Source: a virus
Taxonomy: Duplodnaviria > Heunggongvirae > Uroviricota > Caudoviricetes
Reading direction: 5' to 3' (one strand)
DNA: 58,225 nt
IMG/VR virus record: IMGVR_UViG_2671180275_000006
The position numbers were made by a program. The stretch's first letter is position 1, and each line of letters begins with the position of its first letter. Positions 10,301-19,300 of this stretch are shown in pieces.

Positions 10301-13300
10301 AGGCCAGGGGGGAACAGGCCAGAGATGAAAGTGCTTCATCTGCATCTCAGTTTATCCGTGGACTGAAACAGAATTACGCCCAGTAATTCACGATATTCCA
10401 TTAATACCATTTCCTGATGCCCGGCCATTGTGCCGGGTTTTTTTATGGAGTCTGTATGGCCTATTCAGAGGAACAGCGTCCTGAGGCGCAACTCGGTAAC
10501 CAGAATCGTAACAGCCTGAACATTCAGCAACCCGGCGAAACTGACAGCTATGAAGCATTTTTCTCTGATCCGAATCGCTGGAAGGATAACAGTACGTCGT
10601 TCAGCCTGGGCGATGTATTGCCAACAATGGGTAAAGGTTTCGCCCAGTCCGTCCGGGGAACAGGGGAAATGGCCCGTGGACTCGGTGATGCGATGATTCA
10701 GAGCCCGGTAAAAACAGGGGCGCGTATTTTAAATGAGTTCAGCCGTATGGGGCTGCCGGGTGTCGCAACTGTGCAGGATATTTTTGCCGGTGGCAGCAGG
10801 GGGGCTGATGAGGTCATCGATACCCTGCCTGATGGCAAAAACGCGGTTACTGATACTGTCGGTAAAGGTCTGAAGGCAACCGGTAAGGCTGTCAGTGATG
10901 GTGCTGAAGCCACTGATGAATGGCTGACCGGTAAGATGTCGCCGGGTGCAGTTCGTGCGCTGAATACGCCGATGACCGAAGGCTATGATGATTCTGCGGT
11001 CTGGGTGGCGAAGGGTGTAAACCTGATTGGTGCGCTTGTACCTGATATGGTTGCTGGCGGTGTGGCTAAAAAGGTGGGTGATGTCACACTGCGAAAAATG
11101 CTGACCGCCGGGCTGGAGAAAAAATACATCGCGGCAGGGATGCAGCCGGAAAGAGCCACGGCACTGGCAGCAGAAGCTGTCGATAAAAAAATGCCGGATT
11201 TATTCCAGGCGGGCCTGATCACCCATTCCACAGCCAGTGCACAGGGGCAGAGTGCAATGGCGGCAGCAGATGCTGTTCTTAATGCGGATTACTCTGAGCT
11301 GGCGCAGTCACCGAAATTTCAGCAGACGTTTTTGTCCATTGACGCCGACCCGCAGCACGCACAGCTTACTGATCGCCAGAAAATGGATCTGGCAAAAGAG
11401 CGTGTTGCCGATGAGGTGCGCGCGCAGCTGGCAACCGATCCTGAATTGCTGGCTGTGAATGCCATGGCGGCAAAACTGGGTGACGCACAACTGTTTAATC
11501 TGGTGACACGAGGCACAGCGAAGACCGTTAAAAGCGGCATTGTCAGAAATGCCACGGAACAGGGGGCGATTAATGCGGCGCAGGGCGGCTATTCACGCTA
11601 TCAGGAAAACACGGCATTGCGTGAGACCGCCGGAATGGATGTGTCACCGTGGGAGGGCGTGGCTGACGCAACGATCGAAGGTGCAGCCTTTGGTGCTGCG
11701 ATGGGGGCTCCATCCGGTGCGGTTGCCGGATATCGTGGCAGACGTCAGGCCGCAGAAGAAGCAGCCATGCGTGATGCTGAAACCGTGCAGCAGGACGACG
11801 CAGCCCCGCAACCAGAATCTGTTGATCCGGTGGCGCAGCATCGTGAATCCATGCAGGGGATGAATCGCGAGCAGCTTCTGGAGCAGTATGCTGATGCGGA
11901 TATGGCAACAGAGGGGGACGCATCCGCAGCTCATCGCCGGGAAGCTGCCAGCCAGTTGTTGAATGAACTGGACGAACAGGCGAAGCGACAGGCTGTGATG
12001 AATGAGCTGAAGGCGAAGCCGCGTTCTGAACTGCTTGAGGAATACCGCAGACTCAGCCAGAAAGAGGAGCGCACCGAGACTGAAGAACAACAGTTTCAGG
12101 CAATACGAGAAGTCATTCGCCCACAACAGGAAGTGACGCCGGAAGCACAGTCACAGCCTGAAAATGCGGAGGATGGTAACGGGAGCATTTACCCGACGGT
12201 GCGGTTCCGGGACCCGAATGAAGTCCGCATTGAAATTAACGGGAATGGTGCGTCCAGACCAGCGGAACGCATTGAAAAGGTGCGCCCGGACAACCGTTAT
12301 TTCACGGATGAGAAAAGCGCCATGGGGAGTGATGTTTTCCGTAATGCCGCCGCCACCGGCCTGAAACCGTCCGTAGTGAAGAAAGGCGAGACTCAATATG
12401 CTGTTGAAATGGATAATCCTGCGTTCTCTGAAGATGTGGCAACGGAAACCATTAACACCCTGGCTGACGGAGAGCGTATTGCTGATGCTGACCCGATGGA
12501 GCAGCCCGCGTTCATGCGTGACCCACGATTCCGTGGTTTCACGGGGGATGATACGGAGGTACAGGCCCGCCTTGCCCGTGGCAACGTGCCGACGGCAGAG
12601 GAGCTTGTACGTTCACAGATGGCTGAAGGTGATGCCGGTCCGACAGCACAGGAGTTAACTGAGCGTCCACGCCTGCCCGCTCCCGGCGATATTCATCCCG
12701 GACAGGGATATCCGTTACCGGGAGAGGTGGCGCGTACGCCGGATGAGAATCAGGCAGGACGTGGTGGTCGTTTTACCACAACCGGTGAGGTTAAGGGCCA
12801 GAGTTTCCAGAAAGGACAAGCTCTGGCACCGGAAAACGCCGCTGGTCGCCAGGGGGAAACACTCGAGGGTGAAATGGTTCGTCGTGGTCTGCCGTCACCG
12901 GATGCGCAGAACGCGACAGCACCGGTACGTGAAGGGCTACCGGCTCCGGACATTACACACAATGTCCGTATGCCTCAGCCTGATCAGCTTCCCCGAACTG
13001 TTCGTAACTCATTGCCTGAGCTCGCACAGCAGGCAGAAGTACGTCGACAGGCCGGAGGAAATCGTGACATCCCGCAGCCTGAGACAATCGCACCTGAATC
13101 TGAAACAACAGTCGCTACTGACAGGGAAGCTACCGTGCGCGGAGGTGAAGTCAGGGGCAAAAAAATTGAAGACTTTGGTGAAGAAATTAAGGGCGCGGCA
13201 AAACACCGTTATGCACAGCTTGCTGAAACACTGGGTAAAACGCTGGAAGACAGGGATTATGTCACGCAACCGCTGAGCAAACTGTTCCCGAAACCGGACT

Positions 13301-16300: not shown

Positions 16301-19300
16301 ACGTTCAGCCACTGGCTAAATTACTGGCGGACTACAAAATTGCGCAGGCCGATCTGGATGAGTACCTCTACGCCCGTCACGCGCCGGAACGTAACGCGCA
16401 TATCGCGAAAATCAACCCGAAAATGCCGGACGGCGGTTCGGGGATGACCAACGCGGAGGCGGCGGAAATCATGCAGCGTGTACGTAACAGCGGCAAACAG
16501 GCACAGTATGACCGTCTGGCAGGGATTGTTGACGATATGCTGGCCCGTCGCCGTGAGCTTATCCGTGAGGCAGGACTGGAAGAGAGCGGCGTGGTGGATG
16601 CCTGGCAGAAAGCCTACCGTTACTACGTTCCCCTGAAAGGGCAGGATGTTGACGGTGTGGTGTCACTGCCACGTACAGGCAAGGGATTCACCATCGGCGG
16701 GCGTGAAAGTAAGCAGGCCATGGGGCGCGCATCCCGCGCACAGTCTCCTTCCACTCAGGCGATACAGGATTTGAGCGAATCACTGATCCGCAATCGCAAA
16801 AATGAAGTGGGTAACGCCTTCCTGAAACTGGTACAGGATAATCCCGACAAGGATTACTGGCAGGTATTCACCGATGACAGACCGGATACCATGCGGACGA
16901 TTGCAGAGCGCAAGGACAAGGAAACTGGTGAAACCATTCGCGAAGTTGTCGAACGCCCTGTACCGATGGCAATGATGGCAGACCGGTACTTCACCACCAA
17001 AAAGAACGGCAAAACGTACTACATCAAACTCCATGATCCGCGCCTGATGCGTGCGATGAAGAATATGGGACCGGAAACCAGTAACGCCGTAATCCGCACG
17101 CTGGGGAAAGTTAACCGCTTCCTGGCAACGGTGAACACGTCGTATAACCCGGAATTCCTGGTCAGTAACTTCATCCGTGACGTACAGACGGCGGTGATGA
17201 ACCTGAAGGCGGAGCAGGGAAGGAGCGACGGCAAACTGAAAGGGCTGGATAACTTATCCGCACTGGCTGTGGTGAAAGACAGTCGGTCTGCCATGTCTGC
17301 CGTATACGCCAGTCTGCGTGGTAAAACCCTCACGGGCAACGGTGCGCAGTGGCAGAAGGTGTGGAAAGAGTTTGTTGAGGACGGAGGTAAAACCGGCTGG
17401 TTTAACATGGGTGACCTTGAAGGCCAGCAGAAGGAAATGGATCGCCTTGTATCGCTGGCGAAGGGAGGATGGAAAGGCCAGAGTATCGGTGCATGGAATT
17501 CGTTCCTTAACCTTGTCGAGGATGCCAACGGGGCGGTTGAAAACGCTCTGCGTCTTTCTGCCTATAAACACGCCCGTGATGCCGGTTTGTCACGCCAGCA
17601 GGCGGCGTCTCTTGCCAAAAACATGACGGTGAACTTTAACCGTCGTGGTGAGCAGGGGGCGCTGATGAACTCGCTGTACATGTTCGCCAACGCCAGTATT
17701 CAGGGAACGGCAAATCTGGTGAGAACGCTCGGACATCTTAATGGTGAGGGACCTTTACTGGAGCGCCTTCGCTGGAAGAATCTGAATGTTCCGCAGAAAA
17801 TCGCGCTTGCCGCTGTGGGAGCGGGTTATCTGCTTGGCTCGCTTAACCGCAGCGTGGCGGGTGAGGATGATGACGGGGTTAACTGGTATGACAAAGTACC
17901 GTCTCATGTGAAAGAGCGTAACCTCGTCATTATGAAATCGGTGTTCGGGGGCAAGGCCGGAGAGTACTGGAGTATTCCTCTGCCTTACGGGTACAACGTT
18001 TTCTTCCTGCTTGGTCACACAGCCGAAGGGGTGGCAGCGGGCGACCTGACCGCTTCACGTGCTGCCGGTAATGTTGTTGGTGGTGTGCTTGGGGCATTCA
18101 GTCCTGTGGGCAGTGAAACGTCGGAAACACTGTCCGGGGCATTGCTGAAAAATGCAGCGCCGACCATTCTGCGTCCGTTTGCGAACCTTGCCATGAATGA
18201 AAACTTCATGGGGGCGCAGATTTACCAGGAGAACATGCCGTTTGGTACACCAAAACCTGACAGCCAGCTGGGAAGACGTTCAACGCCAGAAGCGTACAAG
18301 GCGTTTGCATCCTGGCTGAATGCGTTCTCAGGTGGCAGCCAGTACCGTCCCGGCGCGGTGGATATCACACCGGAATCGCTGAAATTCTGGATTGACTATA
18401 TCTCCGGAGGGACAGGGCGCTTCATTTCCAAAACCACGGATGCGGCGGTGAAATCGCTGAATGGTATTGATATACCGGAACAGCAGGTGCCCTTCCTGGG
18501 GAAAATTTCGGGGGAGGTGATGCCGTATGCAGACCAGCAGAAGATGTACGACCGGATGACAGAGATTGCGCAGTATCACGCAGAGCTGAAGAGTCTGACC
18601 GGTGCAGAAAGAACGGCGTTCATTGACGAGAACAACGGAAAATTGTCGATGAACGGGCTTATGCAGGATACCCGGAAGAGACTGAAGGATTTGCGTAAAC
18701 AGCGTGATGCCATTTATGCCGACAGTTCTCTCAGTCTGGCGCAGCAGGCGGCGATAGTGAAATCGGTAGAGCGGGATATGAAGGTTGCCGTGGATCGCTT
18801 TAACCGCGAGTACAACAAAAAAGTGGGAGTGGATTAACAGAAATGGCCCCGTACGGAAGTGCGGGGCTGATTAAGGAATAAACACACATTAACCTGTAAT
18901 AACCGGAGCTATTAACATATAGTCAGAAAGAGTATTTCATGTGAGACAGAGAGCCGATTTATGTTTAATGAAGAAAAAGTTGCGCAAATGGCAGCGTATT
19001 TGCTGAAAAAGCATGGCGGATCTATGCGTTTCATTAAGCTGATGAAGCTGATGTATCTCTCTGACCGCAAAGCAATGGAGTCTTTAACCGGGAAGGGGAG
19101 AGGTTTGAATGCTCCCCCACAATTCCCCGGCATCAAATCTCCATGCAGGTGAACTATTTTACCCCCAGCGGCAAATCGCAAAAACAATCAGTGCGATCGA
19201 AATGGCAGCCACTACAATTGCAAATGCTTCAGGCTAGGTCATTGGCTTACCTCCTTCGGCGGTTCTGGTAGCGGCATCCAGTGGGTTACTTCTTTGAGAT

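Follow-up and report, generated by a model that had tools for sequence, protein, structure and literature searches.

We analysed a 58,225-nucleotide stretch of DNA of a virus of the Caudoviricetes (IMG/VR record IMGVR_UViG_2671180275_000006), called hereafter the window, whose plus strand carries an open frame at 10417-18837, 2,806 aa long when counted from its first ATG. From the ATG at 10456 to the stop at 18837, this frame runs over 2,793 codons without interruption. The resulting 8.4-kb coding sequence (CDS), which we call the giant gene, is annotated in RefSeq as a single CDS at precisely 10456-18837 (WP_032330629.1, “LPD38 domain-containing protein”). The RefSeq annotation derives from the E. 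coli S19-651 chromosome, which was identical to the window at every position of the 12.9-kb and 8.4-kb stretches compared. A preliminary description of the window had proposed the same uninterrupted frame and the same ATG, placed after a terminator-like hairpin and a GGAG, and was right on each of these points. The ribosome-binding site GGAG (10447..10450, plus strand) was read directly, 5 nt 5′ of the ATG. The hairpin and its T run (10419..10445, plus strand) stand between ORF79 and the giant gene; the hairpin itself, a 7-bp stem with 6 G-C pairs, occupies 10419-10438 and is followed by seven T. Read-through of this element in the late operon presumably needs antitermination of the Q type, and the hairpin could set the ratio of ORF79 to giant protein.

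The giant gene (10456..18837, plus strand; 2,793 aa) is the orthologue of ORF80/ECs1242 of Sp5 (VT2-Sakai), of gp47 of phi24B and of gp68 of Shigella phage 75/02. At the DNA level it shares 99.9% identity with gp68 of Shigella phage 75/02 Stx, and about 97% with Sp5 ORF80/ECs1242 and with the gene of many other Shiga toxin (Stx) phages. Sp5 ORF80/ECs1242 is likewise 2,793 aa long, and the genes 5′ of the giant gene have the lengths of Sp5 ORF75-79 (133, 218, 148, 83 and 421 aa). The gene lies at the end of the late operon, after the tail-fibre, tail-tip and lom genes and ORF75-79, as the preliminary description had it when it placed the gene at the end of a block downstream of tail and lom genes. 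In DNA, length and position after ORF75-79 there is no substantive difference from the Sp5, phi24B and 75/02 genes, the window copy being that of a prophage inserted at ynfG of the chromosome of a Shiga toxin-producing E. coli. The giant gene product is already known, then, as a virion protein of the 933W/Sp5/phi24B short-tailed Stx phages, because knockouts of the same gene have been made, virion analyses have shown its product, and the names of its domain families date from 2017. As a podovirus, classed in the Sepvirinae, the phage is not a lambda-type siphovirus, so that the “lambdoid” framing of the preliminary description does not apply to it.

Sequences covering at least 80% of the giant open frame were found in 186 phage records, at 90 to 99.9% identity, and in 423 of 5,426 complete E. 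coli genomes. Because all these records hold it, the frame is not an assembly artefact. It is a single CDS in the annotation of the sampled phage and E. coli records, and no frameshift splitting it was found. The one divergent orthologue profiled, that of phage ArgO145, is 96 to 100% identical along most of its length and keeps both of the zincin motifs described below; identity falls to 83% in the first 100 residues (window 10456-10755) and at aa 1801-1900 (15856-16155), this second spot being the junction between the PBECR domain and the C-terminal module.

Published data on the orthologues bear directly on the role of the gene. Among the 43 gene sets deleted in Sp5 by Mondal et al. (2016), ΔORF80 and ΔORF79 gave neither plaques nor lysogens on K-12 (MG1655); the particles had DNA-filled, normal-looking heads and did not bind an anti-tail-fibre antibody. 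These authors described ORF80 as “required for tail formation” and, from a COG1483 match, proposed an AAA+ ATPase. In phi24B, gp47 is abundant in virions by mass spectrometry (MS), is missing from the cryo-electron microscopy (cryo-EM) and negative-stain maps, and was proposed to be an encapsidated ejection protein (bioRxiv 10.64898/2026.04.10.717836, hereafter the phi24B preprint). A more distant relative, gp69 of Burkholderia phage JC1, which has the same C-terminal module family, gave 51 unique peptides from CsCl-purified virions, and the portal, capsid and head-closure proteins of the JC1 group are related to those of 933W. Packaging of the protein in the virion, anticipated in the preliminary description, is hence physically documented for an orthologue and for a relative. 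A merely accessory, anti-defence role, also suggested there, is at odds with the loss of plaques and lysogeny on plain K-12.

Domain layout of the giant protein

Pfam domains scoring above their gathering thresholds were LPD5 (aa 1051-1200), LPD1 (aa 1361-1440), MuF_C (aa 1750-1837) and LPD38 (aa 2476-2681). Iyer et al. (2017) defined all four families in their study of the “polyvalent proteins” that phages and conjugative elements encode. Several unrelated domains, LPD types among them, occur in one chain together with two zincin domains, and the gene is encoded among virion and late genes. Judged from its domain content, the giant protein can be classed with the phage-type polyvalent proteins of Iyer et al. 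(2017), which is what the preliminary description had expected; its remark that no named family could be assigned is superseded by the Pfam families found and by the earlier studies of Sp5 ORF80/ECs1242 and phi24B gp47. Likenesses to the proteins of Iyer et al. (2017) include unrelated enzymatic domains in one late-gene chain, metallopeptidase (MPTase) hub domains, of which there are two here, and the presence of PBECR, LPD5, LPD1 and the phage-restricted LPD38. The differences are that their framework stresses conflict effectors, whereas the giant gene is essential for infectious particles, and that about 910 aa of the giant protein form one constant module of which Pfam LPD38 spans only about 200 aa.

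The N-terminal domain (aa 1-440; 10456..11775, plus strand) is Ala/Gly-rich, includes a match to phrog_37568 and has glycine-zipper-like stretches at aa 182-204 and 401-426; its residues 161-408 are common to the giant proteins of Vibrio phages. It is followed by an acidic, Gln/Pro-rich, low-complexity linker of about 600 aa without family match (aa ~441-1040; 11776..13575, plus strand), and then by LPD5 (13606..14055, plus strand; Pfam E=1.2e-44).

The HExxH motif occurs twice, at aa 1284 (nt 14305, ALAHEWFHSLDNY) and at aa 1551 (nt 15106, LRHEIIHHAMEH), exactly where the preliminary description had seen it, and each copy falls within a conserved domain of zincin type. From composition 0.036 copies were expected, and two or more were found in 0.04% of 5,000 shuffles. 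The preliminary description had placed long acidic and Gln-rich linkers between the two motifs. The 267 residues that separate them are in fact ordered domain sequence, made up of LPD1 and the N-terminal half of the second zincin domain, and the low-complexity stretch lies upstream, at aa ~440-1040.

Zincin-1 (aa 1182-1440; 13999..14775, plus strand), with HEWFH at nt 14305-14319, is a metallopeptidase domain of the CLCA_X type. The NCBIfam CLCA_X model (NF041907) matched aa 1182-1437 with E=6.1e-44 over 243 of its 250 positions. The score, 150.3 bits, is under the curated cut-off of 260, because the domain lies within a giant and is not a full-length CLCA_X family protein. In 62 homologues of less than 60% identity, H1263, H1284, E1285, H1288, D1291, E1375, R1379 and E1382 were conserved at 100%. 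The helix E1375-xx-A-R-x-F-E1382 is the core of Pfam LPD1; since this “glutamate helix” falls within LPD1 (aa 1361-1440), LPD1 is the C-terminal half of zincin-1. In the phage-type MPTase clade described by Iyer et al. (2017), strand 2 ends in a His, and HExxH is followed, three residues on, by an Asp. Zincin-1 fits this clade, with the HExxH, the downstream acidic ligand, the strand-2 His and a second Glu helix. Proteins of the CLCA_X zincin family come mostly from phages and plasmids, and zincin-1 resembles the CLCA_X/CLCA_N zincins (Lenart et al. 2013) in its profile match and in its HExxH plus downstream Asp. The unit formed by LPD5, zincin and LPD1 is widespread, with 1,492 matching proteins, many of them stand-alone proteins of about 500 aa.

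Zincin-2 (aa ~1470-1685; 14863..15510, plus strand), with HEIIHH at nt 15106-15123, has no Pfam or NCBIfam model. Its relatives were collected by an exhaustive HMMER search of 1.84 billion representatives at E<=1e-3, which replaced an earlier word-index search that had returned mainly assembly fragments of the same gene. The search gave 437 cluster representatives, nearly all within proteins of 1,400 to 6,000 aa. In 145 relatives the motif His, Glu (E1552, 99%) and His were 98 to 99% conserved, and E1607, about 52 residues downstream, was invariant. The motif of the family is HExxxH in 136 of 146 members and HExxHH in 6, the giant protein included, so that of the two HExxH-bearing zincin-like signatures of the preliminary description both domains stand and the motif of the second has to be reread. 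HEIIHH, which fits both spacings, is confined to the Stx/Salmonella lineage; there the active-site helix is apparently one residue shorter, and therefore either His could be the metal ligand. A HEXXXH clade among the MPTases of polyvalent proteins was noted by Iyer et al. (2017). Zincin-2 differs from the CLCA_X zincins in its HExxxH family motif and in having no curated model.

Zincin-2 combines the HE(x)xxH helix with a Glu in a downstream helix. In its AlphaFold model, strands lead to the motif helix and then to the helix bearing E1607, with a core pLDDT (per-residue model confidence) above 90. Foldseek against the PDB returned zincins for 10 of the 13 top matches (MATCAP, anthrax lethal factor, ArdC and selecase), the C-terminal metalloprotease of ArdC (6i89) being one of them; the best E value, 0.05, was not significant. 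When the two zincin domains were aligned with hhalign, edge strand fell on edge strand and motif on motif (P=0.003). The zincin-2 profile against the PDB gave chance matches only, and Pfam, applied to segments (E<=10) and to small stand-alone homologues, gave nothing beyond a faint Peptidase_M76 match at the motif. Taking the motif and the model together, domain 2 is very likely of zincin type.

Downstream of zincin-2 lies a PBECR domain (Pfam MuF_C), predicted to be a metal-independent endoRNase (aa ~1700-1840; 15553..15975, plus strand; E=1.6e-17). Its score was 63.9 bits, against a Pfam cut-off of 27.6. MuF_C as its authors define it is the PBECR domain, of barnase/EndoU/colicin-like RNase fold. 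In 69 sequences H1752, in the N-terminal helix, was 100% conserved, and S1816, in a late strand, 99%. These residues point to an active-type configuration, and we predict an RNase. The phi24B preprint labels MuF-C a “metallopeptidase” and bases on this label a proposal of peptidoglycan degradation. The label, which concerns window 15703-15966, is mistaken: the true zincins are at aa 1182-1440 and 1470-1685.

The last 913 residues (aa 1881-2793; 16096..18834, plus strand), which include LPD38 (17881-18498, plus strand), form a constant C-terminal module, hereafter the C-module. Homologues cover 97 to 99% of it down to 33% identity, with dense invariant motifs. Its model, mainly helical with one beta domain, had a pLDDT of 87.9 and a pTM (whole-model confidence) of 0.85; no solved structural relative of the C-module was found. 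The phage records with the C-module are those of Stx phages and of phages of Vibrio, Ralstonia, Burkholderia and Bacillus megaterium. It always lies downstream of zincin-2 in the diverse giants having both (55 of 55), and its end is a median of 4 residues from the C-terminus. The Pfam domains found N-terminal to it in homologues are PF18760, the methyltransferases PF13489 and PF05175, PF18798 and MuF_C. BcepMigl gp69 (4,658 aa) has, in order, SLT transglycosylase, methylase, helicase, PBECR1, zincin-2 and C-module. In VPHD62_0021 of Vibrio phage D62 (3,066 aa) the C-module follows zincin-2 without a gap, and a counterpart of N-terminal residues 161-408 is present as well. Many other zincin-2 giants lack the C-module; their tails of about 850 to 1,200 aa have only one short motif in common with it (hhalign P=0.002) and are probably a different or very diverged module.

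The giants of Bcep22-like phages annotated as “DarB-like” (BcepMigl gp69, JC1 gp69), of Ralstonia GP4-like phages and of Vibrio phages share the C-module with the Stx protein, at 27 to 42% identity over 85 to 99% of its length. They also share a zincin-2 just upstream of it, association with the virion by MS, a gene that closes the morphogenesis operon and follows one for a protein of ~450 to 540 aa, and portal and capsid genes related to those of 933W. The cargo differs: SLT, methylase, helicase and PBECR1 in BcepMigl; LPD5, zincin-1 and a MuF_C-type PBECR, without methylase, helicase or SLT, in the Stx protein.

A sequence search with the complete giant protein found nothing among PDB chains (best E=0.82), and neither internal repeats nor paralogy with the neighbouring proteins was found. 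Several identities considered for it were rejected: an AAA+ ATPase, for want of a Walker A motif ([AG]xxxxGK[ST]) and of an AAA Pfam match; a tape-measure or tail-fibre protein, since such domains and internal repeats are absent and the virion is that of a podovirus; and a P1 DarB-like antirestriction protein, since no DNA methyltransferase or helicase domain was found, even with Pfam on segments at E<=10. Tape-measure or tail-fibre domains, or frameshifts splitting the frame, were the outcomes named in the preliminary description as contrary to its account, and neither was seen.

Neighbouring genes and the rest of the window

Directly upstream of the giant gene lies ORF79/ECs1241 (9121..10386, plus strand; 421 aa), an essential partner whose knockout phenotype is the same as that of the giant gene. 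Weak homology (E=4e-13) links ORF79 with the gene that precedes the Vibrio giant. The proteins encoded directly upstream of the BcepMigl and Vibrio giants are of about 470 to 540 aa, the Burkholderia one having no detectable homology to ORF79. ORF78 (8859..9110, plus strand; 83 aa), annotated “bacteriocin”, ends in a glycine-zipper, membrane-like segment (Kyte-Doolittle hydropathy 1.69). A “bacteriocin” homologue was detected by MS in phi24B virions and dismissed as a contaminant in the phi24B preprint; ORF78 may be a genuine small membrane ejection protein. ORF76 (7744..8400, plus strand; 218 aa) is Gly/Ala-rich, with a C-terminal glycine zipper followed by a GGSGGSGG tail. In Sp5, deletion of ORF76 still allowed plaques and lysogenisation was very poor, and ORF77 and ORF78 were individually dispensable (Mondal et al. 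2016).

Between lom and ORF75, in the late region, a gene of the Hok/Gef toxin family was found (7051-7191, plus strand); it resembles a type I toxin moron inside a structural operon. Past the giant gene, the right end of the prophage (19239-23845 and 23856-28766, both on the minus strand) holds decayed early genes, with DUF551 fragments, a frameshifted ORF and truncated antA/antB. It adjoins a truncated gene for a 4Fe-4S protein, probably ynfG, with intact ynfF and ynfE next to it; ynfG is where Shigella phage 75/02 is reported to integrate. A second, Qin-like lambdoid prophage occupies 34127-58225, starting at an integrase gene (34127-35407), and contains xis, an exonuclease gene, ydfD, dicB, a ydaT-type toxin gene, queH, hokD, rem, ydfU, ydfT, several pseudogenes and cspB.

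Role of the giant protein and rival explanations

Our results and the published ones together describe an essential, virion-associated, multi-domain protein with conserved catalytic-type residues in two zincins and one RNase-fold domain. As to what it does, we think it fairly probable, by analogy with other podophages, that it is an internally packaged ejection and cargo-delivery polyvalent protein of the T=9 short-tailed Stx podophages. The constant C-module, possibly together with the N-terminal domain, would be the carrier part. It would dock the giant within the capsid, at the portal or an ejection-protein assembly and jointly with ORF79 and the small glycine-zipper proteins ORF76-78, and the failure of tail completion without the giant might be due to the loss of this docking. 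Upon release of the tail needle, the giant would leave the capsid either together with the DNA or before it, and would help to bridge the cell envelope. One or both zincins may then cut the polyprotein, by autoprocessing, and the RNase and LPD5, as released cargo, would act in the cytoplasm. What is said here of ejection, autoprocessing and host targets is inference.

Systems of matching design are T7 gp14-15-16 and N4/DEV gp73-72-71, each made up of a small membrane protein, a mid-size protein and a giant. The N4-like phage DEV co-transcribes the genes of a small membrane protein that forms a pore, of a helical tunnel protein of about 520 aa and of a giant virion RNA polymerase (vRNAP). DEV gp71 is positive by MS and invisible by cryo-EM, and it uses its conserved C-terminal domain to bind the tunnel protein; in phi24B too the giant is detected by MS and absent from the maps, and in DEV it is a conserved C-terminal region that serves assembly. 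N4 gp50/DEV gp71 and T7 gp16 are likewise encoded next to mid-size and small membrane-type genes, with few copies packaged, and N4 gp50 also has an MPTase domain. The gene order ORF76/78 (glycine zipper), ORF79, giant fits such a cluster of small membrane, mid-size and giant proteins, an internal location of the giant being the one deduced in the literature, and ORF79 would be the candidate analogue of the tunnel protein. Unlike the N4/DEV vRNAP and T7 gp16, the Stx giant has no RNA polymerase or transglycosylase domain.

Several observations weigh against the giant being an ejection protein of this kind. No sequence or fold homology to characterised ejection proteins was detectable: N4 gp50 gave no significant match with the C-module or zincin-2, and ORF76-79 gave none with N4 gp51/gp52. 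The giant protein has no classical transmembrane helix, its best 19-residue hydropathy window scoring 1.38. ORF77 and ORF78 being dispensable in Sp5, the strict analogy with a three-protein ejectosome is weakened. The zincin fold of domain 2 is argued from motif conservation and from the fold matches that did not reach significance (best E=0.05). Ejection, membrane insertion, proteolysis and RNase activity are predicted properties of the giant and its orthologues. Finally, the lack of tail-fibre labelling in the Sp5 mutant was read by its authors as a defect of tail assembly, and this phenotype alone does not require ejection.

This last point leads to an explanation in which the giant is purely morphogenetic, a core, plug or scaffold that finishes the portal-tail vertex, with no role in the host and with enzyme-like domains acting in assembly only, the zincins for instance processing virion proteins such as the decoration protein. 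The DNA-filled heads of Sp5 ΔORF80, without fibre labelling, and the “required for tail formation” of Mondal et al. (2016) agree with it, as does the proteolytically processed gp84 of phi24B virions, for which a dedicated protease was not identified; Iyer et al. (2017) also allow for MPTase processing before packaging or in the head, as for P1 DdrB. We nevertheless regard it as unlikely, since an RNase of active type and the methylase, helicase and SLT cargo of the relatives make little sense without contact with the host, and since the podophage tail is too short for the envelope while no other ejection candidates of adequate size are known in the phage. An opposite view makes the giant mainly a carrier of injected anti-defence or host-takeover effectors, its essentiality being a side effect, for example of mechanically or pressure-defective capsids. 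PHROG indeed assigned a “DarB-like antirestriction” family to aa 2351-2681, the Burkholderia and Ralstonia relatives, which have methylase and helicase domains, are annotated in the same way, and polyvalent proteins are conflict effectors in the framework of Iyer et al. The PHROG match is, however, restricted to that part of the constant C-module, methylase and helicase are absent from the Stx protein, and PADLOC returned zero matches. Moreover the Sp5 deletion is non-infectious even on K-12 MG1655, so that a defence-specific role cannot explain the deletion phenotype, and deletion of ORF79 has the same effect. A role centred on anti-defence is in our opinion improbable.

The phi24B preprint proposed instead a wall-cutting role, in which, transposed to the zincins, these would be cell-wall enzymes that cut the peptide cross-links of peptidoglycan and let the ejection conduit reach the inner membrane. 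Wall-degrading domains are frequent in podophage ejection proteins, and in the BcepMigl relative an SLT domain stands at the N-terminus. The “metallopeptidase” of the preprint is however the MuF-C domain, of RNase fold, and the zincins belong to polyvalent MPTase clades (CLCA_X and HExxxH) for which the proposed role is autoprocessing and whose relatives occur also in proteins of conjugative elements; they have no similarity to known peptidoglycan peptidase families. We give this possibility little credit. Even less credible, to the point of being negligible, is a conventional tape-measure or tail-fibre protein, or an AAA+ ATPase powering tail assembly as Mondal et al. deduced from COG1483: the very large size, the late operon, the tail-assembly phenotype and the reported COG1483 match would suit it, whereas no such Pfam match was obtained at any threshold, a podovirus lacks a tail tube whose length could be measured, and the resolved tail does not contain the giant protein.

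Returning to the ejection and cargo-delivery reading, a more ambitious form of it is that zincin-2, the C-module of about 910 aa, ORF79, ORF76 and ORF78 make up a structurally new, self-processing ejection apparatus with release of interchangeable cargo. We put this forward tentatively, as rather doubtful. If true, the self-processing carrier would dock at the portal, be needed for tail completion and cross the envelope before it lets go of its cargo, which in Stx phages would be an RNase, a second protease and LPD5.

The preliminary description was largely correct in reading the gene product as a packaged polyvalent protein with zincin-like domains, and had to be amended on essentiality, on the position of the linker, on the type of phage and on the motif of the second domain. 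The present additions are incremental: they sharpen the domain map of a known object and bring no new object. The refinements consist of the corrected domain map, the assignment of zincin-2 to the HExxxH clade, the active-type configuration of the predicted RNase, and the constant module of about 910 aa together with its pairing with zincin-2. The domain map gives direct targets for mutagenesis and for localisation of the protein in virions and infected cells. The C-module, as a confidently modelled unit, stands behind swappable cargo in podophages of the Stx, Vibrio, Ralstonia, Burkholderia and Bacillus groups. Stx phages are vehicles by which Shiga toxin genes spread in E. coli and Shigella, and the giant gene makes up about 14% of their genome. 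If the more ambitious reading above is true, early infection by these Shiga-toxin-spreading phages would be shaped by an RNase and a protease brought along in the virion, and their host range or lysogeny possibly too.

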